NCBI GenBank assembly: GCA_963665775.2
Contig: CAXXTF010000002.1
Location: forward strand, 896,001-960,000
Origin: Dehalococcoidia bacterium
GTDB taxonomy: Bacteria > Chloroflexota > Dehalococcoidia > SM23-28-2 > RBG-16-64-32
Length of the DNA stretch: 64,000 bases
Direction of reading: 5' to 3'
Shown here piece by piece: positions 38,655 to 57,987 of the stretch. Position 1 is the stretch's first letter. The number at the start of each line of letters is the position of its first letter. The translations under genes were made by a program, and so were the position numbers. A model generated the notes under the pieces. The model had not been told where the DNA came from, made no database searches, and saw only the letters and a program-made list of their open reading frames with translations.

Positions 38655-38729
38655 TCCCCGGTAGCTCAACGGTAGAGCGGGCGGCTGTTAACCGCTAGGT
38701 TGTAGGTTCGAATCCTGCCCGGGGAGCCA
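38655..38729 (+). tRNA. tRNA-Asn (GTT)
   Basis: TCCCCGG/CCGGGGA, loop CTGTTAA, GTTCGAATCC, CCA. Confidence 0.97.
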
Positions 38730-39119
38730 GTTCACCAGCCAGGAGTTTACCCAGGTCCTTCAGGACCGCGGTGTGAAGATCAGCATGAACGGGAAGGGAA
38801 GGTATGCGGACAACATCTTCGTGGAGCGGCTGTGGCGCACGGTGAAGTACGAGGAGGTGTACCTGAAAGCCTACGCCAGCGCGGGGGAGGCCCGGAGGGA
38901 ACTGGGAGCTTACTTCCGGTTCTATAATGACCAGAGGCTCCATCAGGCCCTGGGATACCGGACCCCAGGCGAGGTGTTCAGCGAGGCCACGGCCCTCCGG
39001 GAGGAAGAGTCGAAGAAGAGGAGGTGTTCACCGGAACCAGTGGTGGTATCATCGGCAGAAGTGGCGGGACTCTCACTTAACTCCGCCCCAATTCTGTCCA
39101 ACTGACTGGGTCCACCTCA
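38722..39119 (+). mobile_element. IS3-family remnant: 3' part of the transposase and right end
   Basis: GSQFTSQEF...ISMNGKGRYADNIFVERLWRTVKYE...YNDQRLHQALGYRTP; terminal CTGTCCAACTGACTGGGTCCACCTCA. Confidence 0.9.
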
Positions 39120-39331
39120 CTTTCCAAACAGCCTGGTGTCCTGCGGGTGCGGGAGATCACCTCGCCGCAGCCGGACGGGACGGCGGCCGGCAGGTCGCCC
39201 GCCTGCGACGGCAACAGGACCAGTGGAGGACAGGCGCCGTCCCGATAGGCGCCCGCACCGCTGAGGTCAAGCGAGGCCACGCGACCGGCCATGCACTGAG
39301 AAGACCACTCCCCCACAGGAAGAAGACACAG

Positions 39332-42300
39332 ATGATTCAAGGAAGGCTGTTCAGGGCGTCGGCTGTTGCCTTCGCGATGGTAGCCGTCACGTTCTTCGCG
39401 GTGTTCGGCTCCGGGGCGTCCGCCGATGAGGAGGAGGTCAAGACTCGGGACCAGGGTCAGGACGAGGCTGTGACGCTCCCGGAGAACCAGGCTCCGGCCA
39501 TCCCAGAGAAGCAAGGACAAAGATACCCCAACCTCGGCTCCCACTTGGACCGACTGGTGATCCAGGTCGAGGCGGGAGAAGCCTCCGTTCAAGACGCCGC
39601 CGAAGGCGCTGCGATGCCCGGGGGAGGAACGGTGGCAGTGACCATCCACCTCTCCGGCAACGTGGATGAGGTCGTTAGGTTCCTGGAGGACAACGGGGGC
39701 GACCCGCGCAACGTGGGTGAGGACTACATCGAGTCATACGTGCCGGTTACCTTGTTGAGACGGGTCTCGCAGCAGGCGGGCGTCATACGTGTGCGGGAAA
39801 TCGTCGTGGCGGAGCCGGACCAGAGTCCCTCGCGGGTGGCCGGGCACGGCCCGCCCGTGCACGGCTCCGCGGCCTGGAACAAGGTCGGATACGCCGGGCA
39901 GGGCGTCAAGGTAGGGATAATCGACGGTGACTTCAGGGGCCTGAGCAGCCTCATGGGAACCGACCTGCCGACGACGGTGGTCGCCCGCTGCTACACGGAT
40001 GTCGGCGTGTTCTCCAAGAATCTCGCCGACTGCGAGGCGGTCAGTGACGAGACTGTTTACCTCCCGTTCCCGGAATGTGGCGAAGCTGTTCAGCGCAGCA
40101 GCGTCCGCGATGCCGGTCATGGCACGATAGTTTCCGAGGCGATCATTGACATAGCTCCGGAGGTGTCACTGTACATCGCCAACCCACAATCAAAGGCAGA
40201 CATGCAAGATGTCGTTGAGTGGATGGCATCTGAAGGTGTAGCGGTTATCAACCAATCACAGAATTGGTTCCTTGATGGTCCCGGCGATGGCACTTCGCCA
40301 CGCAGCAACAGTCCGCTACGGACCGTGGATCTGGCCGTGGCCCGCGACATCACTTGGGTCAACTCAACTGGCAATACTGCTCGGAATACCTGGTTTGGGG
40401 GCTACGAGGACCCGGACGGCGATAGGATCATCAGCTTCGCGAGCGGCCTGAATGGCGAATTTCTCGATATCCCTGTCGGGGAGTGCAGGAGGTATACCGT
40501 TCAGCTGCGGTGGGAAGACACCTGGAACGGAACGAGTACGGATCTCGACCTATATCTTTACGACAAGCGATCTGGCGAACTCATTCCAGCAATGTCCAGC
40601 CGGGATGAACAATCGGGAGAAAGTGGTCATGAACCATTTGAATGGTTGCGATTCTGGTCCAGGACTGACAGCGATGATCTTAGTCTAGTAGTATACCACC
40701 ACGGTGGCGACGCGCCCGACTGGATTCAGTTGATGGTATGGGGAACCGCGTCTATCGAGCACTACACCAAAAGCGGCAGCATTGGGAACCCGTCGGAGAG
40801 CGCGAATCCCGGTTTGTTGGCGGTGGGCGCAGCCCATTGGGACGACGTTCGCGCCATCGAACCCTATAGCAGCCGCGGTCCAACCCCCGACGGGAGGGTT
40901 AAGCCCGACGTCGTCGGAGCGGACTGCGGAGCAACGGCGCTGGAACCTCTGAATGAGTACAACCAAGGATTCTGCGGCACCAGCCAGGCGGCGCCCCACG
41001 TGGCCGGTATGGCGGCCCTTGTACGCCAGCGGTTCCCAGGTTACACCCCTGCCCAAGTGGCCGGGTACCTGAAAGACACTGCCCAGCAGCGCCAGAGCCC
41101 CGACCCCAATAACACCTGGGGGCACGGATTCGCCAAGCTCCCGGCGCCCGACGGGTCAGTGTCCACGGTGCCGACGCCGTCCAATGCCTTTACCCGGAAT
41201 CTTGCGGCGGAATTCGACACATTGACCGGCGCTTTCAATTGGACGCCACAGGGCATCTGGTCCGACGGGACGACGATGTGGGTGGCGGACTGGCTCGACG
41301 CTAAGCTCTACGCATACCACGCGGTGACCAAAGCGCGGGTCCCCGGCAGGGACTTCGATACGCTGGCGGCCGCCGGCAACACTTGGCCGAGTGGCATCTG
41401 GTCCGACGGGACGACGATGTGGGTGGCGGACTGGCTTGACCAAGAGATTTACGCCTACGACATCGCGTCCAAGGCGCGGGTCCCCGGAAAGGAGTTCAAC
41501 ACCCTGGAAGCTGCCGGCAACGCTTGGCCGCAGGGAATCTGGTCCGATGGGACGACGATGTACGTCGCGGACTTCGCCGACGAGAAGATCTACGCCTACG
41601 ACATGGAGACGAGGGCGAGGGTTCCCGGCAAGGACTACGATACCTTGAGGGCCGCTAGAAACAGGTCTCCGCGTGGCATCTGGTCTGACGGGACGACGAT
41701 GTGGGTGGCGGACTCGGATAAGGAGAAGGTCTACGCCTACGACGTGGCGACGCGGGCACGGGTTTCCGGCAGGGAGTTCAATACCCTGGAAGCTGCCGGT
41801 AACTGGGGACCGCGAGGCATCTGGTCCGACGGGACGACGATGTGGGTGGCGGACTTCACGGGCACTGAAGAGACGATATACGCCTACTCCATGCTGAAAG
41901 AATCTGCCGCGGACAAGGGAGAGCTGATTGCCTTCTACAACGCCACCGGCGGCACTGGCTGGACGAACAACGCCAACTGGCTGACGAGCTCACCAATGGG
42001 CCACTGGCACGGCGTAACCATCGACGACGATGGCCGCGTCACTCGACTGGATCTCCACAATAACCAACTGAGCGGGAATATACCGTCGGAGTTGGGCAAC
42101 CTCTCCAATCTAAGAGAGCTGGTACTGAGCGAAAATCAGTTGACCGGGTCTGTCCCAACGTGGCTGGGGAACCTCGCCAACTTGACGGTGCTGAGCTTGG
42201 GGGGCAATCAACTGACGGGGGAGATACCGACTGAGTTGGGGAGCCTCTCCAACTTGACGGTGCTGAGCCTCTCAGACAACCAGTTGACCGGGTGTATCCC

Positions 42301-43147
42301 GGTCGGCATCGCGGGCGTGGCGAACAATGACCTCGATCAGATTGGCCTACCGTTCTGTGGGGGTTCGCAAGGGGCTCCAAGCATAAACTCGATCACTACT
42401 GGAGCTAATTTCCTCACCGTCACCTGGACTGCGCCGGGCGTCTCCGGTGGATCGGCGATCATCGCCTATGACCTGCGGTATATCCAAAGCGACGCCACCG
42501 ATAAGTCCGACGCCCGCTGGGCCGTTGTGGATAATGCGTGGACTACCGGCTCCGGCCCTCTGAGTTACCAACTATCGGGTCTCACCACCATTACCCAATA
42601 CGACTTGCAGATACGGGCAGTCACCGCCACCGGTGATGGCCCCTGGTCTTCCACTGCCACCGGAACGCCGACCCCGCCCACGGGCGCGAGCGCCACCCGG
42701 TCCTTCTCCGCAGCCTGGGTAGCGCCGGGCGGGACGTTGACGGTGACCATCACGGCGGACAACTACGGGAGTCTGGGCAGGATCGTCGAGGACGTTCCTG
42801 CCGGGTTCACCACCGAGGACGGCAGCCAGACGGTCATCATCAGGCTGCTGGCCGCAGGACCTCAGACCAGCACCTACACCGTTACCGCCTCCGACGTGGA
42901 GGGTTCCTATACTTTCTCCGGCACCCTGCGGGATGATGAAAGGAACAATCATGCGGTTGGTGGCGATACCACGGTGACGGTGTCCTCTGGGGACCCGCTG
43001 GTTGCGAGGTACGACGCCAACAACAACGGGACGATTGAAAAGAACGAGGTCATAACGGCCATAAACGACTATCTGTTTGGTGTGGGCGACGCCGCCATCA
43101 GCAAGGCAGACGTGATAGAGGTCATCAACCTCTACCTATTCGGTTGA
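39332..43147 (+). CDS. Large secreted S8 (subtilisin-like) protease with propeller repeats, LRR, FN3, Ig/cohesin-like and EF-hand/dockerin-like domains
   Basis: Signal peptide; triad GIIDG / GHGT / GTSQAAPHVAG; 5x GIWSDGTTM(W/Y)VAD; LRR NQLxGxIP; FN3 LTVTWTAP; YDANNNGTIEKNEV. Confidence 0.92.
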   Translation: MIQGRLFRASAVAFAMVAVTFFAVFGSGASADEEEVKTRDQGQDEAVTLPENQAPAIPEKQGQRYPNLGSHLDRLVIQVEAGEASVQDAAEGAAMPGGGTVAVTIHLSGNVDEVVRFLEDNGGDPRNVGEDYIESYVPVTLLRRVSQQAGVIRVREIVVAEPDQSPSRVAGHGPPVHGSAAWNKVGYAGQGVKVGIIDGDFRGLSSLMGTDLPTTVVARCYTDVGVFSKNLADCEAVSDETVYLPFPECGEAVQRSSVRDAGHGTIVSEAIIDIAPEVSLYIANPQSKADMQDVVEWMASEGVAVINQSQNWFLDGPGDGTSPRSNSPLRTVDLAVARDITWVNSTGNTARNTWFGGYEDPDGDRIISFASGLNGEFLDIPVGECRRYTVQLRWEDTWNGTSTDLDLYLYDKRSGELIPAMSSRDEQSGESGHEPFEWLRFWSRTDSDDLSLVVYHHGGDAPDWIQLMVWGTASIEHYTKSGSIGNPSESANPGLLAVGAAHWDDVRAIEPYSSRGPTPDGRVKPDVVGADCGATALEPLNEYNQGFCGTSQAAPHVAGMAALVRQRFPGYTPAQVAGYLKDTAQQRQSPDPNNTWGHGFAKLPAPDGSVSTVPTPSNAFTRNLAAEFDTLTGAFNWTPQGIWSDGTTMWVADWLDAKLYAYHAVTKARVPGRDFDTLAAAGNTWPSGIWSDGTTMWVADWLDQEIYAYDIASKARVPGKEFNTLEAAGNAWPQGIWSDGTTMYVADFADEKIYAYDMETRARVPGKDYDTLRAARNRSPRGIWSDGTTMWVADSDKEKVYAYDVATRARVSGREFNTLEAAGNWGPRGIWSDGTTMWVADFTGTEETIYAYSMLKESAADKGELIAFYNATGGTGWTNNANWLTSSPMGHWHGVTIDDDGRVTRLDLHNNQLSGNIPSELGNLSNLRELVLSENQLTGSVPTWLGNLANLTVLSLGGNQLTGEIPTELGSLSNLTVLSLSDNQLTGCIPVGIAGVANNDLDQIGLPFCGGSQGAPSINSITTGANFLTVTWTAPGVSGGSAIIAYDLRYIQSDATDKSDARWAVVDNAWTTGSGPLSYQLSGLTTITQYDLQIRAVTATGDGPWSSTATGTPTPPTGASATRSFSAAWVAPGGTLTVTITADNYGSLGRIVEDVPAGFTTEDGSQTVIIRLLAAGPQTSTYTVTASDVEGSYTFSGTLRDDERNNHAVGGDTTVTVSSGDPLVARYDANNNGTIEKNEVITAINDYLFGVGDAAISKADVIEVINLYLFG
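41205..41890 (+). repeat. Five ~141-bp coding repeats (47-aa GIWSDGTTMWVAD units)
   Basis: ATCTGGTC(C/T)GA(C/T)GGGACGACGATG recurs at 141-bp spacing. Confidence 0.9.
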
Positions 43148-43167
43148 TTCGGGTCCAGTCAGGTATC

Positions 43168-43201
43168 GGGAGGGGGTTCCTCCGTCACGGATCCCCCTCC
43201 C
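43168..43201 (+). terminator. Hairpin after the protease gene
   Basis: GGGAGGGGG.TCC / GGATCCCCCTCCC. Confidence 0.6.
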
Positions 43202-43218
43202 AGAACGTCACCTAACAA

Positions 43219-43455
43219 ATGAGGAAGAACTTGGTATTGAGAATCGCGTGGGCGGCAATGATGGTCACGGTCACAGCGGGCATGGTGGCCGTGGTGAGCA
43301 TCTTGTCCGCGGCCGCGCAGTCGGCTTCCGGCGCCAGCCGGAGCTTCGATTCGGCGTCGGTCGACCCCAGCGGAGAGGTGGCGGTGATGGTCACCACCAC
43401 CTACTACGGCTAGGCCAGAGGCGTCACCGAGACCCTGCCCGCGGGCTTCGCATGA
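43219..43455 (+). pseudogene. N-terminal remnant of a secreted protein carrying the same ATRSF-type domain as the protease
   Basis: Signal peptide + ASRSFDSASVDPSGEVAVMVTTTYYG*ARGVTETLPAGFA*. Confidence 0.75.
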
Positions 43456-43748
43456 TGCGGTAGAACTGGGACTAACTACAGGTACAGCACCAGGGTCAAG
43501 GTGAAAGTTCTTGATTTTATCAAGTTTGGTGGGCCTAAGTGTACTGAAGCTAGCACCGTCTTCGAGCTTTGGCTGGGCGGGTTGGGCGGCCGTGCCGGAC
43601 GATAGGCTGTACCAACTTCTTGATGTGGCGGGCCGGACTGTGAGCGAACATTCGCAGTTCACAAAAGACACGAATCGCTCAGGTACTGGTGGGTAGTGGA
43701 CTTGAAGTACTACATGGCACGCGTGGCAGGCCCGCAACAAAATGGGGC

Positions 43749-45410
43749 TCAGAGGCGTACTCCGCCGGTCTTCTGAATTCTGAATGCGTGGGACGACACG
43801 TGCCCAACAAACAGCCCGCTCTTGTCCTCACCCCTGGCTAATTCGGCCACCCTCGCAAGGTCCGAGTCTGAAGTACGCACTCCGCCGTAGATTTCCTTGA
43901 TGGCCTCCGGCGGAACATCGACCACTTTGATCGGCCAGCCGTTGTCATCTTTCTGCCCAGTATCTCGCGCCTCCTGCAGATCCACCAGCAGTCTGCCCTC
44001 TCTTTCGTATTCCCACGATGGACCCTTTACGAACAGTAGCCGGCACAGGGCTTGCCAGTCTGCTCCTAGCTGCGTGAGCTCCACAGTTCCTAGAATCGGT
44101 GTTCCATTTCGAGTTCTGCCCGCCCTGGTGTCCTGGTCCATTCGCTCACGATCAGCAAAACGTAACTGAATGACATCGCCCTTTGTCGGCTCGTACACAG
44201 GGGCAATCTCCGTGTAACTCACCTGTCTCAATTCAAAGCCGAGGCTCCTCAAGACTTCCGTATCGTAGCCAACGACTATCCCTGTGTTGAGGGCATAGTG
44301 CGTCCACATCGTCGGGACCGATACGTCCGTGCTCAAGGAGACGACCCCCACAAGAGGATTCAGGGATTCCTGAATGAAGGTCGATAGTCTCAGGTCACCG
44401 AAACGGAGCGCCCGTTCCATGAGCTCCTCTTCCGCCACCTCCACTCCCAGACATTCCTTCAATCTTGACTGCACCCGGGCGATGAAATCGAGAGCATCCA
44501 TCTTCTGGCCGCGCATCGTTATGACATTGCATTCCATGTCGTCGTTCAGGGCCAGCAGTTGGGTTGCCCGCAGGCTGTTCGGCGCCCCTCTGCCAATGTT
44601 CTTCTTGGGTATGTACTTGTACAGGACGCCTGGAACGTCAGCCCTGCCCTCTGCCAGCCTATCCGCGCACTCTTGGAACTGGAACGTTTGGAGCCAGTGG
44701 ACCATGAGACCACGCAAGTTTGACTGCACCCACATGCGGCCCCTTTCGCTCCGAGAGGCTAGCGAACGCCAGGTTGAGGCTGCGTTAGCCGCCGCTCTCA
44801 ACCTGACCGGTTCGCTAAAGGCGTGGTAGCGTCCGTCGACCTGGCAGTAGAATCCTTCTTGCTCAGATGGTTCTATAAGAGCTTCGACGCCTGCGTCTCC
44901 GTTTGCCCTCGGAGCATTCTGTGAATTGGCCAACCTCTGGCGCAGTCGCTGGACGTAATCCTGGTGTCTGACGTTTGGAGACTTGCTTGCCCGGCTGGCC
45001 GTCTCGCCTTGCAAGCCGAAGTCAGAACAGAACACGGCGTAGTCTTGACCCTTCGATCCGCGGCAGTCGCAGTCGTCAGACAAGGTCTCGCACCACGGGT
45101 AAGGACCCTGAGCCAACCGAAACTCGTGGTCGTCCCAACCCTTTGGGAAGCTGTCCTGAATGGATTCCCAGTTCTCGATGTTGTGGACACGCTCGGACAG
45201 CTTAGTAGATATCTCAAAAGAGAAAAGGCGCGGGCGTATCGGCACCGGTGAGTCGGGATTCTCTCCGCCAAGTCGACTTTGGAAGAAAGTCTTGGCCTGC
45301 TCCAGCGACCACCCCGACGCCTGGAGCTTAATCCACATCTGATTACTTTCAAGGGCTATTTCGTAGAGGTGATGCTTCATTGGTTCCCATCCACGAACGA
45401 GGTTCCGCAT
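43749..45410 (-). CDS. DUF2971-like protein with a long Cys-containing N-terminal extension
   Basis: LYKY, LNDDMEC, GVVSLST..VPTMWTHYA..TGIVVGYD, KGPSWEYEREGR. Confidence 0.75.
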   Translation of the reverse strand: MRNLVRGWEPMKHHLYEIALESNQMWIKLQASGWSLEQAKTFFQSRLGGENPDSPVPIRPRLFSFEISTKLSERVHNIENWESIQDSFPKGWDDHEFRLAQGPYPWCETLSDDCDCRGSKGQDYAVFCSDFGLQGETASRASKSPNVRHQDYVQRLRQRLANSQNAPRANGDAGVEALIEPSEQEGFYCQVDGRYHAFSEPVRLRAAANAASTWRSLASRSERGRMWVQSNLRGLMVHWLQTFQFQECADRLAEGRADVPGVLYKYIPKKNIGRGAPNSLRATQLLALNDDMECNVITMRGQKMDALDFIARVQSRLKECLGVEVAEEELMERALRFGDLRLSTFIQESLNPLVGVVSLSTDVSVPTMWTHYALNTGIVVGYDTEVLRSLGFELRQVSYTEIAPVYEPTKGDVIQLRFADRERMDQDTRAGRTRNGTPILGTVELTQLGADWQALCRLLFVKGPSWEYEREGRLLVDLQEARDTGQKDDNGWPIKVVDVPPEAIKEIYGGVRTSDSDLARVAELARGEDKSGLFVGHVSSHAFRIQKTGGVRL

Positions 45411-45700
45411 ATGGGTCTGTCCGGTACAGTCCCAGACTCATCGCGGTGGTTGGTCTAGGGTCAGCATCGCTTTGGCACCGGTTAAGAGTCAACCGATGCG
45501 CGTCCTCCAGCGGGCCGTCCCTTCCAGCTCGGGGCACGATTTCCTGTTTCTTCGCAACCACCAACGTGTACGGTAGACAGGGCTATCTTCGAGATATGGC
45601 TGGGTGGCCTTGAGGATTCCCATACCGCCCTATAACCGTTTGGTGCAGGCGTCACTCGATATGACAGTAGAATCCCTGCCTGGCTAACTGTTCGACTAGG

Positions 45701-46708
45701 TCAATCATTAGAGTTGTGTTCCTTCTCCCCCTGCTCCTCCCCCTTCGCCATGCGGTAGCCGACCCTTGGCTCGGCGAAGAAGTAGGTGGGGTTGCTGGCA
45801 TCCTCGCCCAGCTTGCTGCGGAGCCGCTTCAGGTGCGTGCGGAGCGCCCCCAGATCGTCCGGCCTCTTGGCCCCCCAGAGCCTTCGTAGCAGCTCATCGT
45901 GGGTCAAGACCCGCCCGGCGTTGACCGACAGCTCGTAAAGGAGCTGATACTCCTTGGCCCTCAACGCCACCGGGCGGCCTGCAAGCGTGACCCGGCGCTC
46001 GGCGTAGTCGATGATGAGGTCGCCCAGCACGTAGGGCTCCGGCGGCTCGGATTGGGGATGGCCTCCACTCCGTCGCAGGGCCGCCCTCACCCTGGCCACC
46101 AGCTCGGTCGGCGAGAAAGGCTTGACGATGTAGTCCGAGGCTCCGGCCTCGAAGGCCCGCGCCACCACCCGGTCCCGGCCGTAGGCGGAGAGGAAGATCA
46201 CCGGCACGTCTGAAACGCCAAGGATGTCCCTCATCAGCTCGATGCCGTCGGAGCCGGGCAGCATCAGGTCAAGCAGGACGAGGTGCGGCCGGTTCTCCTC
46301 CATGAGCGGCAGGGCCTCCACCGGGTCGGCGGTCACTATCGCCCTGTAGCCCGCCTCGGACAGCGCCTTCCTCACGTACCGCAGCGTTTCGGGATCGTCG
46401 TCCACCACTAGGATCGACTCCGCCTCCGACTTCTCCTGTCGAGGGCCCTTGGCCGGCCGGTTGCGCTCCACGGCGGCCTCGTCGACCGCCGGTACAGTGA
46501 AGGTAAACCGCGCCCCCAGCCCCGGCCCGTCGCTCTCGGCCCGGATGCGCCCTCCGTAGGCCTCGACTATCCCCTTGCAGATGGCCAGGCCCAGGCCGGT
46601 GTCCCCTCCCGGGTCGTCGTCCTCGCGCTGGGAGAACTTGCGGAACAGGTGTGGCAGATGCTCGGTGGGTATGCCCCTGCCTTCGTCGGCAACCGAGACC
46701 GTGGCCAA
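45701..46708 (-). pseudogene. 5'-truncated hybrid protein: HATPase C-terminus fused to an OmpR-type receiver and wHTH
   Basis: Starts mid-HATPase (VSVADEGRGI, GLGLAICK); ILVVDDD, DLMLPGSDG, DYIVKPF, EPRVGYRM. Confidence 0.85.
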
Positions 46709-46832
46709 GGTGGGTGCCAGCCTGTCGATGGTCGGGAGGCCAACACCAGGCTCGCCTGTCTCATCGAGGGTCCCTGTCGTAAGTGGCTCGGTGGTGGGGG
46801 AATCAGGAAGTCCCGTGGAGTCCTTCGACCGC

Positions 46833-47672
46833 CTACTCCCGCATCATCTCGACGAAACGGTTGCCTATCTGCTCCGCGCCCCGTTGGTAGGAGACCGGCA
46901 CCCACCCCTCCGGGTCCTCGCGGATGCGCCCTGCCGTCTCGGGGTTTTCTTGCACATCCTCCCAAACGAGGGCCCAGCGCCTTTCTGTGGGGAAGAGGCT
47001 CTGTGGCGAGTCCGACGCTCCGCCGTCGTCCGCCGTCATGTCTTCTATCATCGGCCGGTCGTACTCAGAGACCTGCCGAACCGCCACGTTGGCATAGCCC
47101 TCCAAGAAGTCCAGCTCCAGGGCGCGGCTCTCCTCTATGGCATAGCGGTGTATTGCTTTCAGCTCTGCCGCCATCTCCCGGACGCGCCTCACGTGGGCCT
47201 CCCACGCCTCGATCACCCGCTCGTTGAGTTGCACGCCGCTCTCCTTGCCCACGGGCAAGCGCTGCTTTCCCCATACCCCCCAAACGTATTCTCGCCAGAG
47301 TTGCGCGGAGAGTTAAGGGCTTGCCCGGCCTTAGGTAGGAGTTTTCGATGAGCAGGGGGCGTGCGGCCTCATTGAAGACTATCGCCTCCTCTACCTCCAC
47401 CAGCGCCCGCTCGAACCATAGGATACGGTCCCGCATTAGGAGTTCCCTTTCCATGCCGTTTACCAGATGAGTGAGCGTCTCCAAGTTGGACTTTAGGATT
47501 TCGTAGCGGCTTACGATGGCGAGAGCGCCGGTTGCTCCCGGAACAAGTTCTCGATGACCAGGCGGGCCTTTTCCTCCGGCCATCCCGAAAGGGCTTCGAC
47601 TATGTCCTCCAAGCGCTTTTCCGGGGAAAGGGCTTCGACTATGTCCTCCAAGCGCTTTTCCAGTGATCCCAT
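46833..47672 (-). pseudogene. Helical hypothetical gene with multiple frameshifts
   Basis: Three successive plausible reading segments (MGSLEKRLEDIV..., AIVSRYEILKS..., VIEAWEAHVRRV...). Confidence 0.5.
47587..47661. repeat. Tandem duplication, 36-bp unit with 39-bp period
   Basis: GAAAGGGCTTCGACTATGTCCTCCAAGCGCTTTTCC at 47587 and 47626. Confidence 0.95.
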
Positions 47673-47875
47673 AACACCCCCCATCGGCAGCCTCATCGAC
47701 GGCCTCTGACCCTCGCGCACGGGCGCTCGTCGATGCTCATGAATAGACCCCCACGAGACCGAGCTGCTCAAATGCCCGCTCCACCCCTTCCCTTTGCGAG
47801 CGCAGGACCAGGATAGCCCTCTGTCTGGCTGTGAGGCCGTGACTGACCTTCTGGAGGCGGGTTGCAATCGACACG

Positions 47876-48274
47876 CTAGCGTCGCCTCCCTTGCTTGACC
47901 AGGCGCGGCCCCAGCGCCCCTTCCATGGCCGCCAGCCGGCTCTCGAGCTCTCCCTTCTCCAGAAGGTTGACCGCGACCTGCGCCAGATAGGCGAGGGTGC
48001 GGCTGCGGGCGACGCTGTTCTCCAGGCTGAGAGTATCGAGGATCGCCACTTCGAGTAGCCGCCTGATCCGGAGGATGCTTCCCAGCCCCTCGAAGTCGTA
48101 GGCGCCGGAGACCGCCTTCTCCTTGCGGCGCCGCAGCCCGCCCAGGCGCCTGGCCTCGGCCACCTCCTCGGCGTGCTCGGGCGAGTGCATTAGACAGAGT
48201 TCGGCATCGTGGAGCGGAGGTGCCCGGCAAGGGCTGCCGTCCCCTTTGAGGGTGTTGCAGGCCTGAGATGCCAC
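47876..48274 (-). CDS. Mobile-element hypothetical protein with an N-terminal C-C-C-H motif
   Basis: CNTLKGDGSPCRAPP...CLMH, ARRLGGLRR; partial paralog near 55118-55230. Confidence 0.75.
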   Translation of the reverse strand: MASQACNTLKGDGSPCRAPPLHDAELCLMHSPEHAEEVAEARRLGGLRRRKEKAVSGAYDFEGLGSILRIRRLLEVAILDTLSLENSVARSRTLAYLAQVAVNLLEKGELESRLAAMEGALGPRLVKQGRRR

Positions 48275-48364
48275 TATTTGCCACCTCTGCTGACAAGGGG
48301 TGATGGTGGCCTGGAATGAGGCCCAAACGAGTAGGCAGACCCCTGGCGGGGCCTGCCCCTGACG

Positions 48365-48778
48365 CTATTCGGCGGCCGCTGCCAAGCCGTCCGCCCGGTG
48401 CCCGCGGGGGCACTCCGCCGGCGCCCGGTCGTCCGCCACCTCGAAGGCCTCCCCGCAGGCGCTGCAGAAGTATCCGCCGTCCTCCAGACGGCTGACCAAC
48501 CCGTTGCCCGGGTTGGCCTTCCCCTTGCCAGACTTCTTTACCGCCCTCTTCGACTTGGCCTCCTCGTTGCCCGAAACGCTCCAGAACCGCCAGCCGTTGC
48601 AGGCCGTGCCGCCCATCACGGCGCTGCCGGCGGCCGAGGGGCTCTTGAACTCCCGGCCGTCCTCCAGACGGTAGCGTGTGCTCCCATCCCCCTGGACCAG
48701 CTCGGCGGTGTATTCCCGGCCCTTGTAGCGGGCCGCCAGACGCGTGCCCGACCTGAGGTTCCGGTCCGTGATGCTCAT
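48365..48778 (-). CDS. RAMA/DUF2924-like DNA-binding domain with a C-terminal Zn ribbon
   Basis: LAARYKG, FKSPSAAG...NGWRFW; CSAC...CPRGH; GAGGAGGTG RBS. Confidence 0.8.
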   Translation of the reverse strand: MSITDRNLRSGTRLAARYKGREYTAELVQGDGSTRYRLEDGREFKSPSAAGSAVMGGTACNGWRFWSVSGNEEAKSKRAVKKSGKGKANPGNGLVSRLEDGGYFCSACGEAFEVADDRAPAECPRGHRADGLAAAAE

Positions 48779-48913
48779 GCAACACCTCCTCTTGAATTTG
48801 TGCTGTACTACTCACTCTCGTCGGCGCGGAAGTCAACGGGTCGGGGCGCTCACCCCGGCGGTTTCTCGCAACTCCAGGGGTGAGCCACTCACTAACCGGC
48901 GTTAGTGTCGGGT

Positions 48914-49546
48914 TCACTCCGGCCGCTCCTTCTCCGCCCTCTCGCCCGTGAACGCCTCCCAACGGACGATCGCCACCCGGCAGTAGCGGGGGTCCAGCTC
49001 CATCCCGTAGCACCTGCGCCCCGTCCTCTCGGCGGCGATCAAGGCCGTCCCCGAGCCTAGGAACGGCTCCGCCGCGATGTCGTTGGGCTTGCTGCCGTTC
49101 TCCATCGCCCGCACGTAGAGGGAGACCGGCTTCATCGTGGGATGCTGGGGGGAGGACTGGGGCCGGTCTTCCTGCCACACCGAGTCCTCCTTGCGGGAGC
49201 CCTGCCAGCTGCTCTTGCCCTTCCAGCCGTAGAAGATGTGCTCGTGGCGGTAGTGGTAGTGGGAGCGCCCCAGCACCAGCCTGTCCTTCACCCAGATCAA
49301 CCACTGGCGGTGCTCGATGCCGGCGGCCGCGATGGAGGCGCAGAGGGTAGAAATAAGAGGCCCCGGCGGGCAGAACACGTAGGCGTCGCCTTCCAAGGGC
49401 CAGGCGGAAAAGACCTGCGTCCAGAATTCGGCCTGGTCCTGGCCCAGGTCGTCGTTGGCGATGGGACGCCTCCGCTTCCGGCCCCCCGGCTCGTAGGCCA
49501 CGCCGTAGGGCGGGTCCGTCACCAAAAGCGTCGCCGTCTCACCCCC
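48914..49546 (-). pseudogene. 3' half of a beta-class N6A/N4C DNA methyltransferase (ParB part lost)
   Basis: TDPPY, HPTMKPV, EPFLGSGT, GMELDPRYC; paralog of 52217-53257. Confidence 0.9.
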
Positions 49547-49559
49547 TCAAGATTGAGCC

Positions 49560-50164
49560 TCGATTGGCGGCGCCACGGCGATTCTTTTCCACAGAGCACG
49601 ACCACGATCAGGCTGGCTCCCAAAGCGCATGGGACCGCAAGGCAAGTTCGAGGGCGATTCTTTGAGTGGCGTAAGAGGGCTGGCCTGGCGGCCGGAGTCT
49701 ATGACCTCCAGGCCTTCATAGCGGATGGGCAGCCGCGCTCGTTCATCCTGCTGGCCGTCCCCAATGAAGAGGCCGTCAAGGTCTCGTCCGGCCAGGCTTT
49801 CGAGGTTGAGTTCCTCGCCTCAGGTCAGGGCCCGGACGAAGTTCTGGCGTGGCTCCAATCCTGTTATCTGGACGAGGCTGCTTCCTGGCAAACATCAGAC
49901 GAGTTGCTGGCGCTCCTAGCGGAGACCAGCGGCCGGCGTCGCTTCCAGGGCTTTGGTAGCGCATATCAGAGGCCTGACCAGGAAGCCACCGATCCTGAAT
50001 CCCAGCCGTTGGGCCGGGTCTCTGGCGGGTCGGGGAGAGTGAAGCAGGCGGAGATGAGCTGTCCTTTCTGTGGGGGCCGGGTCGAGTTTATCGGCGTCTC
50101 GGTCGGACTCGATTCCACCGAGAAAGCCCAGAAGGGCTATCTATGGCGAGGGCTGCCCCGATGA
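49560..50164 (+). pseudogene. 5'-truncated hypothetical protein with a C-terminal CPFCGG motif (possibly a Rep-like C-terminus)
   Basis: GRRRFQGFG and CPFCGG; stop overlaps the next start; no own start after the junction near 49548. Confidence 0.5.
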
Positions 50165-50367
50165 GGGAAGTGCTAGGCCAACCCGTTGACGGCCCAGGCA
50201 GCGAGGAGCGAATCAAGGGGGTTATCGCCATCCTCGCCGCCGGCCTCGAACGGCTGATGGCCCAGAGGATAACGTCTTCAAATAAGCCGACGGCCGAACT
50301 TGACTTCGGGGATGAGTTAGCGGTTACTACGCACTGCCAGCGGAACGCCGACCGAGAGGAGTGTTAG
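50161..50367 (+). CDS. Small protein upstream of the recombinase (candidate directionality factor)
   Basis: ATGA overlap with the upstream ORF; stop lies 4 nt before the recombinase start. Confidence 0.55.
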   Translation: MREVLGQPVDGPGSEERIKGVIAILAAGLERLMAQRITSSNKPTAELDFGDELAVTTHCQRNADREEC

Positions 50368-50371
50368 AGAG

Positions 50372-52183
50372 TTGGTCTCGGAGGCCCCTACCAGGATACG
50401 CCAGAACGAGGGTAAGCCGCAGCCGGCCCGACGCGTCGGCCTGGTGATGCGGGTTAGCACCGACCGCCAAGCGCTTAACGAGGAGGGCTCGCTCAAGAAC
50501 CAGCTCCAGCGCCTTCGCCAACACGTCGACTACAAACGGGCGGTCGCCGGCGAGGAATGGACAGAGGCAGAGATCTACGAACTCAGAGCCATCTCAGGCA
50601 AGGACTCCCTCCGCAGCCCTGAATTCCAGCGACTGTTCGCTGATATCCGCTCCGATCGCATCAACACCGTCCTCTGCACAGCCCTCGACCGCGTATCCCG
50701 CTCCGTGAAGGACTTCCTTCACTTCTTCGAGTTCATCAACGAGCACAACGTCGAGTTCGTCTGCCTGAAGCAGAACTACGATACGACGACCCCACAGGGC
50801 AGGCTGTTCGTAACGGTCATGATCGCCCTGGCCGAGTTCGAGCGGGAACAAACCTCCGAGCGCACCAGCGAGGCGGCGGCAGCCAGGGCGGAGCGGGGGC
50901 TGTGGAACGGTGGCCGTCTCCTTGGCTATGACCTGGACCCGGACAAGAAAGGGTCCTTGGTCCCGAACCCGGAAGAGGCGCTGCTGGTCAGTTTCGCCCT
51001 CGACGCCTACCTGGAGTGCGGCTCACTCAAGAATACCGCTCAGGCCCTCAACCGGCGTGGCTATCGGACAAAGGCGTATACGTCACGCCGCGACAGACAC
51101 CACCCAGGCAAGGAATTCACCCTTACGTCCGTCCAGTATCTCCTTAAGAACCCCGCTTACATCGGGATGAAGGAGCTTAATAAGAAACGCGGCCAAAGGG
51201 ATTCCAGCTACCGTCTGGTGGACGCCGTCTGGCCCCCCATCGTCGACGAGGCGAAATTCGAGCAGGTCCAGCGTCTTATGAGGGCCAACGGGCAATCCAA
51301 CCACAACGGCTCTCAGCCCGCCCGGCATTCATACGTCCTCAGCGGCCTCCTTCACTGCGGCCGTTGTCACTCCTTGATGGAGGGCAGGTGCGGGACCGGG
51401 CGGCTCGGCTCTCGATATTACTACTACGTGTGTCGCAATAGAGACTGCGGCCTGCGTGTCAGCGCTGACGAGATCGAGGGGGCAACCCTTGGCCGCATTC
51501 GCGAGCTGGCGAGCTCGCCGGACATCCTTGAGCGTCTTGTTAACGAGACCAACGGCAGGATTGCCGGCGAACGGCCCAAGCTGATTGCTCGGCGGGATGA
51601 CCTCGGGAAGAAGCTGCACGATCTCAAGAATCAGGCAGACAAGGTCCTCGTTGAATGGTCGGCTCTCGAAGAGCAGGCGGGAAGAGCCTTCCTCACAGAG
51701 AAGTTGGGGAATTTAGCTCCGCGCCGAAGCGACCTGGAGCGCGGCATCGCCGAAGTCGAAGAAGCCCTGGCGGCTATGGACAGGGAACGGGTGACGGTGG
51801 AGGTGGTTCGGACCGCCCTCGGCGACTTCGGCCGGCTCTACGCCTGCCTCACCCCGTTTGAGCGAAAGGAGCTAATCAAGCTGATACTTCGCCGGGCGGA
51901 AGTCGGCGTCCGCCAGATCGCGCTGGAGCTGTATCCAATTCCATCAACGGAGATGGCGGCGCAGGGCCGTGTACGCTTTGAGGCACCAAACTGGCTCCCC
52001 GAGTCGCTGCCGCAAAGCGTACTGCGCGACGCCTTTGCTATCCGCCTTCCCAGTATAACTGGCTGGGTTCGAAGGGCACGACGCCGATTCGATAGAGCCT
52101 CCAGATCCCAACGGCGTAATGACCCCAGCCTCTGTAGGGCATCTTCTCCTCCTAGGATTACTGTGCCTAAGTTGGGGGGTTAA
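50372..52183 (+). CDS. Large serine recombinase (integrase), complete
   Basis: MRVST catalytic motif, ISGK..R.PEF, LDRVSRS, AEFERE, recombinase domain (LLKNPAYIG), Zn ribbon CGRC...YYVC...C, coiled coil. Confidence 0.96.
   Translation: MVSEAPTRIRQNEGKPQPARRVGLVMRVSTDRQALNEEGSLKNQLQRLRQHVDYKRAVAGEEWTEAEIYELRAISGKDSLRSPEFQRLFADIRSDRINTVLCTALDRVSRSVKDFLHFFEFINEHNVEFVCLKQNYDTTTPQGRLFVTVMIALAEFEREQTSERTSEAAAARAERGLWNGGRLLGYDLDPDKKGSLVPNPEEALLVSFALDAYLECGSLKNTAQALNRRGYRTKAYTSRRDRHHPGKEFTLTSVQYLLKNPAYIGMKELNKKRGQRDSSYRLVDAVWPPIVDEAKFEQVQRLMRANGQSNHNGSQPARHSYVLSGLLHCGRCHSLMEGRCGTGRLGSRYYYYVCRNRDCGLRVSADEIEGATLGRIRELASSPDILERLVNETNGRIAGERPKLIARRDDLGKKLHDLKNQADKVLVEWSALEEQAGRAFLTEKLGNLAPRRSDLERGIAEVEEALAAMDRERVTVEVVRTALGDFGRLYACLTPFERKELIKLILRRAEVGVRQIALELYPIPSTEMAAQGRVRFEAPNWLPESLPQSVLRDAFAIRLPSITGWVRRARRRFDRASRSQRRNDPSLCRASSPPRITVPKLGG
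51989..52001 (-). other. att-like core matching the tRNA-Asn 3' end and flank
   Basis: AACTGGCTCCCCG is the reverse complement of 38720-38732. Confidence 0.75.
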
Positions 52184-52216
52184 GGGTTGCGGATTCAGCA
52201 AGGCGGAGGCGGACGG

Positions 52217-53665
52217 GTGGCGGTGGAAGGCGAGGACGACAACAGAACACATCTCACTATCGAACATGTGGAGCTCGACCGGCTTAAGCCCGACCCCTTC
52301 AACCCTCGACGGATCGCAGAGCAGGATCTCGACGCCCTAACCAGGAGCATCCAAGAATTTGGATTCGTTGACCCCATCATCGCCCGGCGGGAGGACCGCG
52401 CCGTCATCGGCGGCCACCAACGACTGCTGGCGGCAAGGCGTCTGGGCTTGGCCAGCGTCCCTGTCATCTTCGTTGACCTCTCGCCTGAGCAGGCTAAGCT
52501 CCTCAACCTCTCCCTCAACAAAATCAGTGGCGCCTGGGACGAAGAGCTCCTAGCCCGCCTCCTGGCTGAGCTTAACGAGACTCCGAACGTTGACATCACC
52601 TTTTCCGGCTTCGCAGAGGACGAGATCGCCAAGCTGCTCAAGACCTTGGAGCTACGGGAGAAGCGGGAGCGTACCGAGGTGTTCGATTTCGACGCCGCAT
52701 GGGAAGCGGCAACCGCCGATCCCGGCGTTAGGCGGGGAGACATCTGGCTCCTGGGCGACCACCGGCTTATGTGCGGAGACTCGGCCGACAGGGGCGACGT
52801 GTCGCGCCTGATGGCGGGTCAGACGGCGACGCTGATGGTGACGGACCCACCCTACGGCGTGGCCTACGAACCGCAGGGGCGGACGCGCAGGCGTCCCATA
52901 GCCAACGACAACCTAGGCCAGGGCCAGGCCGAGTTCTGGACACGGGCCTTCTCGGGTTGGCCCTTGGAAGGCGACGCCTACGTGTTCAGCCCCGCGGGAC
53001 CGCTTGACCTGACCCTCTGCCGGTCCATCGTGGAAGCGGGCATCGAGCACCACCAGTGGCTGATCTGGGTGAAGGACAGACTCGTGCTCGGGCATTCCCA
53101 CTACCACTACCGCCACGAGCACATCTTCTACGGCTGGAAGGGCAGGACAAGCTGGAACGGCTCCCGCAAGGAGGAGTCGGTGTGGGAAGAAGACCGGCCC
53201 TTAGCTTCCCCGCAGCACCCAACAATGAAGCCGGCCTCCCTCTTCGTTCGGGCCATGGCCATCTTTACCCCTTTCTTTTCACGCCCAAGACTAACATTAC
53301 TCCTGGACCAGTTCTTGGGGGGCAGGTCAATACGAGCCGTGCTTGAAAGCGAGCGTCGGGTCTTCGCAGCGGCTGACATCACTTCCTTCGGAACGATTTG
53401 TGAGAGCGATCCGGTTGAACCTGAGGGTGACTATACCAACGACGAATCTTGTCGCGAGCGGACGTTTGAAGAGTACCTAAATGGGCAGTCTCGCTTGGAA
53501 TTCTACGACGAGAACATGACGGTGATGGATGTGTGGATAGGGGAGACCGGCCTGATCAATAAGATACGCTTTCAGATCCCCCCTGATGAGCATGGAAGGA
53601 TAGAGCAGGTCATCACCTTCGAATATTCAGAGTTTGGTGAGGTAGTGATCGAGCGTCCTGTTTAG
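52217..53665 (+). CDS. ParB-like domain + DNA methyltransferase, truncated near 53257 and fused in frame to an unrelated LppX-like lipoprotein C-terminus
   Basis: NPRRI, FGFVDPII, IGGHQRL, GDHRLMCGDS, TDPPY, HPTMKP; after FVRAM it diverges from the 48914-49546 paralog; ends DVWIG...FEYSEFGEVVIERPV. Confidence 0.85.
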   Translation: MAVEGEDDNRTHLTIEHVELDRLKPDPFNPRRIAEQDLDALTRSIQEFGFVDPIIARREDRAVIGGHQRLLAARRLGLASVPVIFVDLSPEQAKLLNLSLNKISGAWDEELLARLLAELNETPNVDITFSGFAEDEIAKLLKTLELREKRERTEVFDFDAAWEAATADPGVRRGDIWLLGDHRLMCGDSADRGDVSRLMAGQTATLMVTDPPYGVAYEPQGRTRRRPIANDNLGQGQAEFWTRAFSGWPLEGDAYVFSPAGPLDLTLCRSIVEAGIEHHQWLIWVKDRLVLGHSHYHYRHEHIFYGWKGRTSWNGSRKEESVWEEDRPLASPQHPTMKPASLFVRAMAIFTPFFSRPRLTLLLDQFLGGRSIRAVLESERRVFAAADITSFGTICESDPVEPEGDYTNDESCRERTFEEYLNGQSRLEFYDENMTVMDVWIGETGLINKIRFQIPPDEHGRIEQVITFEYSEFGEVVIERPV

Positions 53666-54026
53666 CCCCACCACCCCCACGGCTACAGCTACTGTAGTAC
53701 GAAAGCTGAGGCGAACCGGGAGCTCATTTTCGGCAACGAAGCACCAGAGAATTTAGGCCAACTCATGATTGACCAAGCGATCAAGTGGGCTAGGCTGAAT
53801 GAGTGGCTAATAACAAACTTTCGGGAGATGGTTAGAAGTTCGGTCGAGGGAGAGAAAGATGGCGCACTTGATCACCTGCTCCTGGCGATGCTGTGGGAAT
53901 GGCCTGACTACTCCGTCGAGGAAAATGTCGCATCTCCCCAATCACGGAATCCGGTTTGCAGGTCCTCCGCACATGACGCCCCGCAGGAAGGCCAGACAGA
54001 GCAGGCTGGGGAAGCCAGACGCGGCT

Positions 54027-54659
54027 TCATGCCCCCAGACCCAAAGACGGCTGCCGCGTCATGCCCCAGAGGGGGATACCGTTCGGCAATGTCAACTCCG
54101 CCGTCACCAGGAAGCCGAACCGCTCGTAGTAGCCGAAGTTGTCCGGCGCTGACGTGTCGAGAAATGCGGGCAGGGCGTCGTCATCTATACGCGGAAGCAT
54201 CTGGTTGATGAGGGCGCTTCCCAAACCGGTGCGCTGCGCCGAAGGATCGACACCGATGCCGTTGAGGTACCAGCACGGGCCAGGCGGTTTGAGCGCGGCG
54301 AGCACGGGGGCAAGAGCTTACCGTCGCCGCCAGGCCGGGATGCCGAGCCGGACGGGCGCAGCCCAGAGGCCGGACCGCAACAGCGTCAGAGCACTGTGCT
54401 TGGGTTTTTGGGGTGAACCCCAGATAGCGACGCCCAGCACGGCATCACCGGATCCACCATGGGCGACGTACACGGCTCCGCCGGAGTGGACGCAAGCGCG
54501 GATGGTTGCGCCCCAGACCCAGGGTAGTCTTGCGTGCCGCTGCGCGTCGTTGGGAAGGAGAAACGTGTAGCGGGGAGCATTCGCGAAGGCGTTGGCCATG
54601 ACCCGCGCGGCGGAAGGGATTTGGTTCAGGCGTATCGGGGAGATGAGGGGCCCAGTCAT
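54027..54659 (-). pseudogene. GNAT acetyltransferase interrupted by TAA at 54318-54320
   Basis: AARVMANAF...GVAIW, then in the same frame WYLNGIGVDPSAQRTGLGSAL...LDTS...YERFGF. Confidence 0.85.
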
Positions 54660-54782
54660 GAAAGAATTTTACCTGATCCGTCCCGGGAAGCGGTGTAAGA
54701 GGGCGAGGGTGAGGCGATTGCGATGGAAGCGGCCGGTCGGGGGTCATTGCGCCCCGACATTTGGCTGAGAGGCAATCACCCA

Positions 54783-54977
54783 CTATTCGCCATCCAGCAG
54801 TCCGTTCCGCACGGCCCAGACCGCCATTTCCTGCTTCGAGCCGACGATCAGCTTGCCCTGCATGGCGTAGACGGCGATCCGGATGGTCACCGGCTTGAGT
54901 TCCCTGGGCTCCGCTATCCTGGCGTATGACATGCCCCGGCAGAACGAAGCGAGTATCTCCAGGCCCCTCTCCGTCAC
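54783..54977 (-). pseudogene. LuxR/NarL HTH C-terminal fragment
   Basis: TERGLEIL..FCRGMSYARIAE...TIR...KQEMAVWAVRNGLL. Confidence 0.8.
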
Positions 54978-55117
54978 TCCGCCCAGTCCCTTTTCTCCTC
55001 CCTCCCCGTTCTCCGGGCTCTGCCTCGCCTCCTCCGATTGCAGCCGGTCGGACCGTGGTCAGGAGGACGGGCTACCTCCAGAAGGTGTCGGGGGTGGAGC
55101 GCCGTCCTTGCGTGCCC

Positions 55118-55230
55118 GGCCACCTCCTCGGCGTGCTTGGGCGAGTGCATTAGACAGAGTTCGGCATCGTGGAGCGGAGGTGCCTGGCAAGGGCTGCCGT
55201 CCTCTTCACGAGCTTGCAGACGCGTGGGGT
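55118..55230 (-). pseudogene. Fragment of a paralog of 47876-48274
   Basis: CGGCCACCTCCTCGGCGTGC...GGCAAGGGCTGCCGTCC nearly identical to about 48157-48243. Confidence 0.85.
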
Positions 55231-55442
55231 AACCAACGGCAATCTCTGCTTATCGGGGGCCCTGCTTACCGCGGCCTGGAGCCAAGGCAGACCATGAAGG
55301 TATGGCCCTTCTGCAAGCTCTGGATTGATGGTCTCCTGCGCCGACGTTTGTGGCAGAAGGGCGACCGAGAATGATACATTAGGCTGGTCCTGCAGTAGGG
55401 TCGGCTCCAGCATGTACTCCGGCCTATTTCGAGGGGAAAAGC

Positions 55443-55868
55443 ATGTCCATCCTGATTCGTGCGGCAGCGGCTTATCTGGTTTTGGTGGCAGTAGCGGTAG
55501 CCGTGCTCTTCATTATTACCCCGCTGTACCACCCAGGCGGGGACGCGCCGTTCCCAGAGTGGAAGGTCCTCAACTGGTTCATGGCGGTAGGGATGGTGTT
55601 CACCCTGGTCGCCAGCTACGCAGAAAAGCGGCGTGTCGATGGCGACGGTTCGGCGGACCTGAAGCGCTACTTGGAAGCGAACACGGTTTTCTACGGGACG
55701 GCCGCCGTGTTCATCCTGTTCTTCTGGAACTGGTTCAGCTCTTTGTCTCCCAACAACCAGCCCGACGGACAGCTTTGGATCGTCATCGACACCCTGATGC
55801 CTATCGTAACGGGCGTCACCGGCTGTCGAATGTGGCGCAACGTGGAGGCCTACTTGCCGCGTCCGTAG
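55443..55868 (+). CDS. Four-TM hypothetical membrane protein
   Basis: GAGGGG RBS, four hydrophobic segments. Confidence 0.8.
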   Translation: MSILIRAAAAYLVLVAVAVAVLFIITPLYHPGGDAPFPEWKVLNWFMAVGMVFTLVASYAEKRRVDGDGSADLKRYLEANTVFYGTAAVFILFFWNWFSSLSPNNQPDGQLWIVIDTLMPIVTGVTGCRMWRNVEAYLPRP

Positions 55869-56043
55869 TTGCGAGCTGCACAGCTAGAAAAATGAGCGTT
55901 CGTTGTTATGGGTAGAGGGCTCGCCGCTGACTAACGAAGCCGTACGCCAAGCAGCCTGCTGGACCTCATCGGTTCCTGGATTGAGGCTCTCATTCGTGAC
56001 GACTCATGACAGCCTAAAACACATTCGCTGCTCACGGGAGAAT

Positions 56044-57975: not shown

Positions 57976-57987
57976 GCGGCGGCTCGG

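Follow-up and report, generated by a model that had tools for sequence, protein, structure and literature searches.

According to a 2014 paper, serine integrases were not known to target tRNA genes, and passages of a 2017 review describe the mobilizable elements that use site-specific serine recombinases as integrating within genes and disrupting them (PMC5704250). An attachment (att) site of the attP type inside the open reading frame (ORF) of an integrase is documented for the tyrosine integrase of Mx8 (PMC4383910). In SSV-type archaeal elements the att site also lies inside the integrase gene, which is split on integration (sections of PMC8371274 and PMC7253208), and a section of a 2021 review calls these SSV-type suicidal integrases exclusive to archaea (PMC8371274). 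No report of a serine integrase that targets a tRNA gene or carries an internal attP appeared among the papers that searches of open-access full text listed, and later work is possible. Here we describe a stretch of 64,000 nucleotides from a Dehalococcoidia bacterium (the window, G000:C2:896001-960000, taken from the 2.35-Mb, 91% complete, two-contig assembly G000), in which the 3' end of tRNA-Asn is fused to the middle of an IS3-family insertion sequence (IS), at the edge of an island carrying genes for large serine recombinases (LSRs). We estimate at about 70% the probability that one deletion between direct copies of GGGGAGCCA(GTT) fused tRNA-Asn to the IS3 element and removed the left end of the island.

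The tRNA-Asn gene belongs to a conserved Leu/Gln/Asn cluster that was matched in all 41 genomes searched, G000 counted among them. The assembly has 50 tRNA genes and no second tRNA-Asn; this one is identical in sequence to that of the relative G022 and ends at 38729 with ...CCCGGGGAGCCA. The sequence across the joint reads ...TCCTGCCCGGGGAGCCA up to the tRNA end and GTTCACCAGCCAGGAG beyond it. A frame opening at 38722 (GSQFTSQEFTQVLQDRGVKISMNGKGRYADNIFVERLW...) runs through 127 codons (GSQFTS…) to a stop at 39103-39105, and it matches Pfam rve_3 (E 5.4e-15), the C-terminal part of IS3-family OrfB. Both the tRNA and the IS3 element can claim the bases from 38721/38722 to 38729; the GTT at 38730-38732 consists of IS3 codon bases and may also have belonged to the lost attL arm. 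Upstream of the joint the apparent codons are tRNA, so the stub reads …ESCP where full relatives read …NTDQ, and the Asp of DQGSQF is replaced (…CPGSQF). The preliminary description of the window had proposed that the tRNA-Asn 3' end runs into the middle of an IS3 transposase through shared bases, and the ARAGORN prediction, the rve_3 match and the base-for-base alignment with IS3 relatives all bear this out.

From 38721/38722 to its right terminus at 39119, the stub can be aligned base by base with full relatives of the IS3 family from metagenome loci (L076-L086), and over 120-127 residues it is 54-65% identical in amino acids to OrfB from many complete elements. By the DD(35)E spacing of the family, its first two catalytic Asp residues are missing. 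Homology begins in the middle of OrfB, so that only the C-terminal part of an IS3 OrfB with an rve (DDE) core is present, and not the complete set of both terminal repeats, OrfA and three catalytic residues. The IS3 remnant is therefore inactive, a stub and not an element. The …DQGSQFTS… context was found in 76 of 80 IS3 relatives examined; nine of these 76, including eight of the 11 closest, carry GGGAGCCAGTT, and two of the latter eight read CAGGGGAGCCAGTTCACCAGC. Because IS3 relatives carry GGGAGCCAGTT, the shared stretch is native to the IS. No other copy of the stub's IS was found in the G000 genome, whose own relatives of it reach just 56-58% amino-acid identity, and its 5' half was found nowhere in the assembly. 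A near-identical full parent was likewise not found, the best matches being 69% over part of the length in the order and 65% in amino acids among metagenome contigs.

As the preliminary description had also noted, an intact form of the motif occurs near 58412 in a second IS3 OrfB, which at 58411-58427 reads CAGGGAAGCCAGTTCAC and departs from the 11-mer at one position. This second copy is a different, unrelated element (its DNA is about 78% identical to that of the remnant over 99 nt, its protein 54-58%). It shares just ~790 nt, the OrfB region, with its five other copies in the genome, and because homology begins at 57983 in all of these copies, it apparently also lacks OrfA and its left end.

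The island carries three LSR copies, two of them in the window (Table 1). LSR1 has the domains of a large serine recombinase (PF00239, 4.8e-32; PF07508, 3.7e-18; PF13408, 1.4e-07) and shows distant matches to the TP901-1 and SPbeta integrase structures; its catalytic activity and directionality are predicted. The observation, made before the present analysis, that an att-like core inside both recombinase copies consists of the same 13-15 nt was correct, and this 14-mer, CCCGGGGAGCCAGT, is key to the locus. It is exact at 56164-56177 on the plus strand and matches at 13 of 14 positions at 51990-52003 on the minus strand, antisense within the 3' coding parts of the LSR genes. In each of the three copies the attP-type site spans 48 bp, with two 17-nt arms around a 14-nt centre; the arms are complementary at 15/17, 15/17 and 14/17 positions, against 4/17 at the attR taken as control. 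The W-L-P-G/E codons of attP are the antisense of the tRNA end CCCGGGGAGCCA, and the symmetry of the arms places the putative crossover dinucleotide, GA, at 38724-38725. Matches to the 11-mer with at most one mismatch numbered four in the window against 1.64 expected, a count that 13 of 100 shuffles reached and that is not significant alone, and the two recombinase matches represent one homologous position in a duplicated gene. The exact 14-mer is expected 0.0024 times per window from base composition. Judged from the comparative data, the CCCGGGGAGCCAGT core is a true recombination site.

Nineteen loci from family and order relatives were fetched, 17 of them readable beyond the CCA of tRNA-Asn. 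Fourteen of the 17 had an unrelated flank after CCA (starting with A in 12), and the other three (G008, G009 and G022, of the same family as G000) had antisense LSR sequence directly after it. In G008, which has a whole LSR gene there, at least 260 nt could be aligned, and an LSR-like open frame of 367 residues, adjoining a 303-residue frame, reads into the antisense tRNA. The remnants are ~140 nt long in G009 and ~55 nt in G022, and these LSR remnants indicate that left-end decay of such islands recurs. A class-wide search of 301 genomes gave eight besides G000 with an LSR1 homologue at E<=1e-60. At seven of these eight loci tRNA-Asn(GTT) and the LSR gene converge, the tRNA lying directly against the gene's 3' end, and homology to LSR1 stops at residue ~534-545, which corresponds to the W-L-P-G/E codons antisense to the tRNA end. 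The integrated ORFs end in ...WLPGQDSNLQPSG or ...NWLPGQDSNLQPSG before the stop, or in a close variant, and take their TAA stop from the antisense anticodon loop.

The P' arm followed CCA in every occupied tRNA-Asn site read among these family, order and class-level loci. The eight intact attL junctions begin with GTT (four), GTC (three) or AAC (one), and the two remnants with TTT and GAT. In the complete genome G125, attL at tRNA-Asn is accompanied by an attR-type site 40 kb away on the same strand, and G031, like the G000 island, has an internal attP-type site, here 34.6 kb from its attL. Hybrid sites flanking elements at a defined attB were thus found as attL in the three relatives and in seven of the eight class-level loci, as an attL/attR pair in G125 and as attR in G000.

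GGGGAGCCA occurs 40 times in the G000 genome, and five of these occurrences stand in an att context: the tRNA, the three attP-type sites in LSR1, LSR2 and LSR3, and one attR-type site. The left side of the latter is a P arm whose minus strand encodes HWLPGFVSQSVLRQ... / HWLPGFVSQSVLRQSF...GVSRARVTQVLGPAQK and a stop, homologous to the tails of the other LSRs, and its right side (ATGTCAACTATTCC...) is not a P' arm (4/17). This LSR tail adjoins a ParB_N/N6_N4-methylase gene, and these LSR genes usually have a ParB_N gene as their neighbour downstream. An LSR tail with its ParB_N neighbour is the anatomy expected at the far end of an element that opened at an intragenic attP. The 11-nt direct repeat CCGGGGAGCCA lies on the same strand at 934719-934729 and, at attR, at 985688-985698, with mobile-element genes in between. 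As in tRNA-gene-targeting islands, an intact tRNA bounds the island on one side and a repeat of the tRNA 3' end on the other, but its recombination sites are not both intact, the P' arm being replaced by IS3 sequence in G000. The LSR island sits at tRNA-Asn with its attR intact. Missing from it are the attL arm, the IS3 element's 5' half and the body of the resident LSR.

Table 1. Positions of the tRNA genes, recombinase copies, att sites and IS3 elements at the tRNA-Asn locus (window positions, unless C2 is given)
Feature	Position	Strand	Remarks
tRNA-Leu(CAA)	38447-38535	+	ARAGORN; first of conserved three-tRNA cluster
tRNA-Gln(TTG)	38561-38634	+	ARAGORN; second of conserved three-tRNA cluster
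tRNA-Asn(GTT)	38655-38729	+	ARAGORN; intact, CCA encoded; B arm and core of former attL
Junction (deletion joint)	38721..38732	+	GGGGAGCCAGTT; common to tRNA 3' end/att core (to 38729) and IS3 codons (Q)GSQF
5'-truncated IS3-family element	38722..39119	+	Last 127 OrfB codons and right terminus ...CCACCTCA at 39119
LSR1, full-length large serine recombinase	50372..52183	+	Pfam Resolvase, Recombinase and Zn_ribbon_recom; inverted relative to the others
attP1	51973..52020	-	Inside LSR1 3' coding region; 17-nt arms (14/17 complementary) around CTCGGGGAGCCAGT
ParB_N-domain gene	52187..53665	+	Pfam; directly after LSR1
LSR2, N-terminally truncated copy	56044..57201	-	Lacks Resolvase domain; 95% identical to LSR1 over 993 nt
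attP2	56147..56194	+	ACGCTCTGAGGAACCAG-CCCGGGGAGCCAGT-CTGGTGGCTCAGAGCGT; arms 15/17 complementary; inside LSR2
Second IS3-family copy	57983..58771	+	OrfB 57992-58705; intact DQGSQFTS motif at 58408-58431; comparison only
LSR3, third copy (outside window)	G000:C2:963090-964871 (given up to 964913)		attP-type site; two internal stop codons
attR	G000:C2:985690-985698		...AACGCTCTGGGACACAAATCC-GGGGAGCCA-ATGTCAAC...; P arm left, foreign flank right
Island	C2:934730-985698 (~51 kb); window part 38730..64000		Composite; left 25 kb in the window; attR 25.7 kb beyond window end

From the anatomy, the att sites and the missing parts, which are directly established, we infer the following history. An LSR island would first have integrated at the 3' end of tRNA-Asn through an attP in the 3' coding region of its own recombinase, a reaction expected to regenerate the tRNA, to place the LSR gene antisense behind it (attL) and to move the detached LSR tail to the far end (attR). 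An IS3 element would then have inserted into the island in direct orientation, and a deletion with one end in the tRNA-end att core and the other in the (Q)GSQF codons of the transposase would have removed all that stood between. This one event would have carried off the P' arm of attL and, with it, the resident LSR's body and the IS3 element's 5' half. The mechanism was most likely an enzyme-independent illegitimate recombination between repeats of 9-12 nt, by replication slippage or microhomology-mediated joining. The repeat available measures 8-9 nt against the bare tRNA end, and would have measured 11-12 nt if the resident attL began with GTT. At a random joint, an overlap of 8 nt or more has a probability of order 1e-4 (our own estimate under a simple random-joining model), and the shared stretch is therefore causal, not incidental. 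The joint lies exactly at the tRNA's 3' end because tRNA-Asn is single-copy, so that only deletions restoring the exact 3' end were viable. The outcome leaves the tRNA intact, the IS3 as a dead stub and the island without attL; as predicted from the sites that remain, the island is probably locked in place and presumably no longer able to excise through its own sites.

Of the two alternatives offered in the preliminary description, the microhomology deletion of the left end of the island agrees with an attR that has the true P arm and an attL whose P' arm is missing, and the use of the IS3 motif as a pseudo-att site is not supported. Several points nevertheless weigh against the deletion. Its starting state, an intact attL together with a full IS3, was not found in any genome or metagenome contig searched. 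The closest relatives of the parent IS show only ~65% amino-acid identity, so that we infer the nucleotides of its motif. Among the public-run pieces listed, no contig bridged 38729/38730 with at least 31 letters on each side. The flank to the right of attR was unmatched in 65 genomes of the order and in the 17 post-tRNA flanks (best score against the latter 11, shuffled-control mean 13.6), and the original attB was not rebuilt. A deletion does not explain how three LSR copies with uninterrupted attP sites arrived inside the island; the extra copies may have come from tandem accretion, through recombination at att sites or close to them. Lastly, a spontaneous and a recombinase-catalysed deletion give the same product, and the sequence cannot separate them.

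The latter variant, in which an LSR of the island catalysed the same deletion by recombining attL with the IS3 motif as a pseudo-site, cut at the central GA, is unlikely. The full-length LSR1 gene is present, the IS3 site has the inner right half-site GCCAGT(T) and the putative crossover dinucleotide in common with attP, and passages of the PhiBT1 study report that LSRs act on degenerate pseudo-sites whose one strictly conserved part is the core dinucleotide (PMC5937489). Beyond GCCAGT, however, the IS3 sequence and attP2's P' arm agree at 5/17 positions, which is chance level by our own count, and the IS3 sequence bears no likeness to the attR flank. The same passages place the key positions of the PhiBT1 sites ~11-16 bp from the core and indicate that long core identity is unneeded (PMC5937489). 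Because LSRs do without long core identity, a perfect repeat of 11-12 nt is a prediction of homology-driven joining and not something an LSR needs. In addition, serine integrases are described in two sources as allowing no pairing besides attP x attB without a directionality factor (PMC3783163; 10.1101/2025.05.02.651858), and the junction was not recurrent among the sites compared. The recurrence check covered 185,579 species genomes with the pattern GGTTCGARTCC-N7-GGAGCCAGTTYAC, that is, a tRNA (...GGAGCCA) followed by GTTYAC. None of its 25 matches, each judged by eye over 70 residues for a transposase-like frame, continued into a transposase, and no tRNA-Asn followed by IS3 GSQF codons was seen among the LSR-occupied tRNA-Asn sites read.

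It is very improbable that the junction is an assembly chimera of the tRNA locus and an unrelated IS3 contig, joined at the shared 11-12 nt. The region is repeat-rich and none of the listed public contigs crosses the joint, which would fit such an artefact. Six public runs, belonging to three studies, contain at least half of the words sampled, and four of these runs were aligned; their sequence is in short contigs that break at tRNAs and IS elements. An overlap of 12 nt, however, lies far below the word and overlap sizes of assemblers and is too short to mislead them, and a genome in two contigs points to long reads. The flanks at 38300-38475 and 39013-39500 were found at about 100% identity in runs of three studies, and the island downstream, with its tRNA-Asn-specific LSR family and correctly oriented attR, is what belongs behind this tRNA.

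Least probable of all is that the LSR integrated a circular, IS3-bearing DNA into an empty tRNA-Asn attB with the IS3 motif as pseudo-attP, by which, as had been suggested earlier, the integrase could pull IS-bearing DNA into the tRNA locus: the motif and the att core are identical in the core and pseudo-site use by LSRs is documented in parts of PMC5937489, but such a capture predicts the IS3 5' half and native flank at the far end, where a genuine P arm encoding an LSR tail stands instead, the IS3 5' half is missing from the 91% complete assembly, the IS3 site has neither P nor P' arm, and the 25 pattern matches include no such fusion.

The content of the island is mosaic and mobile-element-like, including a primase-like protein, an ECF sigma factor, fragments of restriction enzymes and a subtilase-LRR-fn3 cargo gene. 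Beyond the window, the island has the pair of LSR and ParB_N gene at two more places, of which one lies beside attR, and an N6_N4 DNA-methylase domain is fused to the ParB_N copy beside attR and to one further ParB_N gene of the island. Next to LSR3, which has ~70% DNA identity to LSR1, lie a further ParB_N gene, genes for a primase-like protein and an ECF sigma factor, and a ParB_N/N6_N4-methylase gene. The cargo ORF (38927-43147) contains four 141-nt repeats at 41245-41949; as listed, it starts inside the IS3 stub, probably too far upstream. Four tandem 387-nt repeats at 59579-61315 encode a protein of four sCache_2 domains. The detached LSR tail at attR (L157 10462-10683; C2:985462-985683, minus strand) forms a separate 73-codon ORF ending ...GVSRARVTQVLG. 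This segment is conserved in the tails of G125 and G031 (L189, L199), and the shorter tails of LSR1-3 lack it; Pfam gave no family for it, and a helix-turn-helix-like fold is possible but unsupported.

Behind tRNA-Asn, the variable region extends beyond the LSR island. From attR to the first gene block syntenic with relatives lie a further ~47 kb (C2:985699-1033094), with repeated genes that have paralogues elsewhere. A gene block found 7-12 kb after tRNA-Asn in four relatives lies at C2:1,033,094-1,036,466 in G000, ~98 kb after the tRNA, and this displacement shows a large variable region but does not give it a sharp boundary. A gene following tRNA-Asn in G002 was considered as a marker of the native flank and dropped, since in G000 it maps to paralogues, a pirin-glyoxalase pair that is present twice (C2:979.8 kb and 354 kb).

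The LSR copies are themselves mosaic at the att sites. The body of LSR1 resembles LSR2 (84-100% in 50-nt windows from +100, mostly 92-100%), and the sequence beyond its tail, on the ParB side, resembles LSR3 (96-100% from -200 to -500). The partner switches within ~150 nt of the core (positions 51800-52200 and 56000-56400; G000:C2:963100-963500), which suggests exchange at or near att sites. Homology of LSR2 to LSR1 ends at 57201; the segment at 57208-57988 occurs at four other places of the genome (90-98% identity), and its ORF at 57211-57975 encodes PDPTAAP-like repeats that match no Pfam family. A different serine recombinase fragment at 62598-63620 has the Recombinase domain and a zinc ribbon without the catalytic domain; it is 96% identical to C2:109537-110378 and was not matched by LSR1 or LSR2 in a blastn search of the genome.

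Just after the att core, the P' arm contains a 13-bp hairpin (56180-56212; -29.6 kcal/mol, z -5.1 against shuffles) without a T-run. The hairpin stands at the same place in the attL of relatives, for example L009, L012 and L017, so that on integration it comes directly 3' of the tRNA-Asn CCA, where it could act as a terminator or a processing signal for the tRNA operon. The deletion in G000 removed it.

A short-repeat deletion that grounds an island is an ordinary type of event, and what is unusual in the tRNA-IS3 joint is the coincidence that supplied the repeat. As a single decay event, the joint gives a base-by-base view of an island losing its attachment site and becoming a fixed part of the chromosome, and it shows how a single-copy tRNA filters which deletions survive. 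We further propose, tentatively and with more doubt than confidence, that these enzymes form a clade of LSRs that target and regenerate tRNA-Asn, carry an internal attP at W-L-P-G and exchange their tail for the 12 residues LPGQDSNLQPSG, the tail swap serving as an integration switch. Under the same tail-swap proposal, LPGQDSNLQPSG would be read from the antisense tRNA, with a TAA end that overlaps the anticodon. If this is true, the swap would be a built-in switch between an integration-competent and an integrated enzyme, a serine counterpart of Mx8 IntP/IntX and of the SSV-type integrases, and any IS3 element with a GSQF(GGGAGCCAGTT)-type motif landing in such an island would bring a ready-made repeat for deletion of attL and grounding. 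Unless a later report exists, the family widens the target range of serine integrases to the 3' end of tRNA-Asn. Serine integrases are prized as genome-engineering tools, and tRNA-Asn offers a conserved, gene-preserving landing site; the family is also a natural case of integration remodelling the C-terminus of an enzyme.

Among known systems, the classical serine integrases (phiC31, Bxb1, PhiBT1, TP901-1 and SPbeta) share with the LSR family the order of Resolvase, Recombinase and zinc-ribbon domains and the formation of hybrid attL/attR sites. They also share, according to passages of the PhiBT1 study, a short attP of ~50 bp with imperfect inverted repeats around a central crossover (PMC5937489). 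Unlike them, the LSR family described here targets the 3' end of a tRNA gene and regenerates the tRNA, and its attP lies inside the recombinase ORF, so that integration swaps the C-terminal ~45-85 residues for a short tail. Mx8 IntP, whose target is presumably also a tRNA gene, is a tyrosine recombinase with another catalytic mechanism and att logic, and is unrelated in sequence to these LSRs. The SSV-type enzymes are tyrosine recombinases of archaea, whereas here a bacterial serine recombinase has just its C-terminal tail detached and no catalytic part. At the pseudo-attB sites of PhiBT1 in Nocardia, the same passages show an LSR acting on sites that share little beyond the core dinucleotide (PMC5937489). 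Those attP x pseudo-attB integrations leave two junctions, each the reciprocal of the other; the locus described here lacks a reciprocal junction and has a true attR at its far end.

Loss of the DNA between two short direct repeats is a general route by which prophages and islands decay, and the tRNA-Asn locus has the same result, with one copy of a 9-12-nt repeat kept and a grounded island left with one att site. It differs from an ordinary deletion of this kind in that the repeat arose from the coincidence of a tRNA end and att core with the codons of a transposase catalytic motif, and in that the joint was constrained by the need to keep the sole tRNA-Asn gene.

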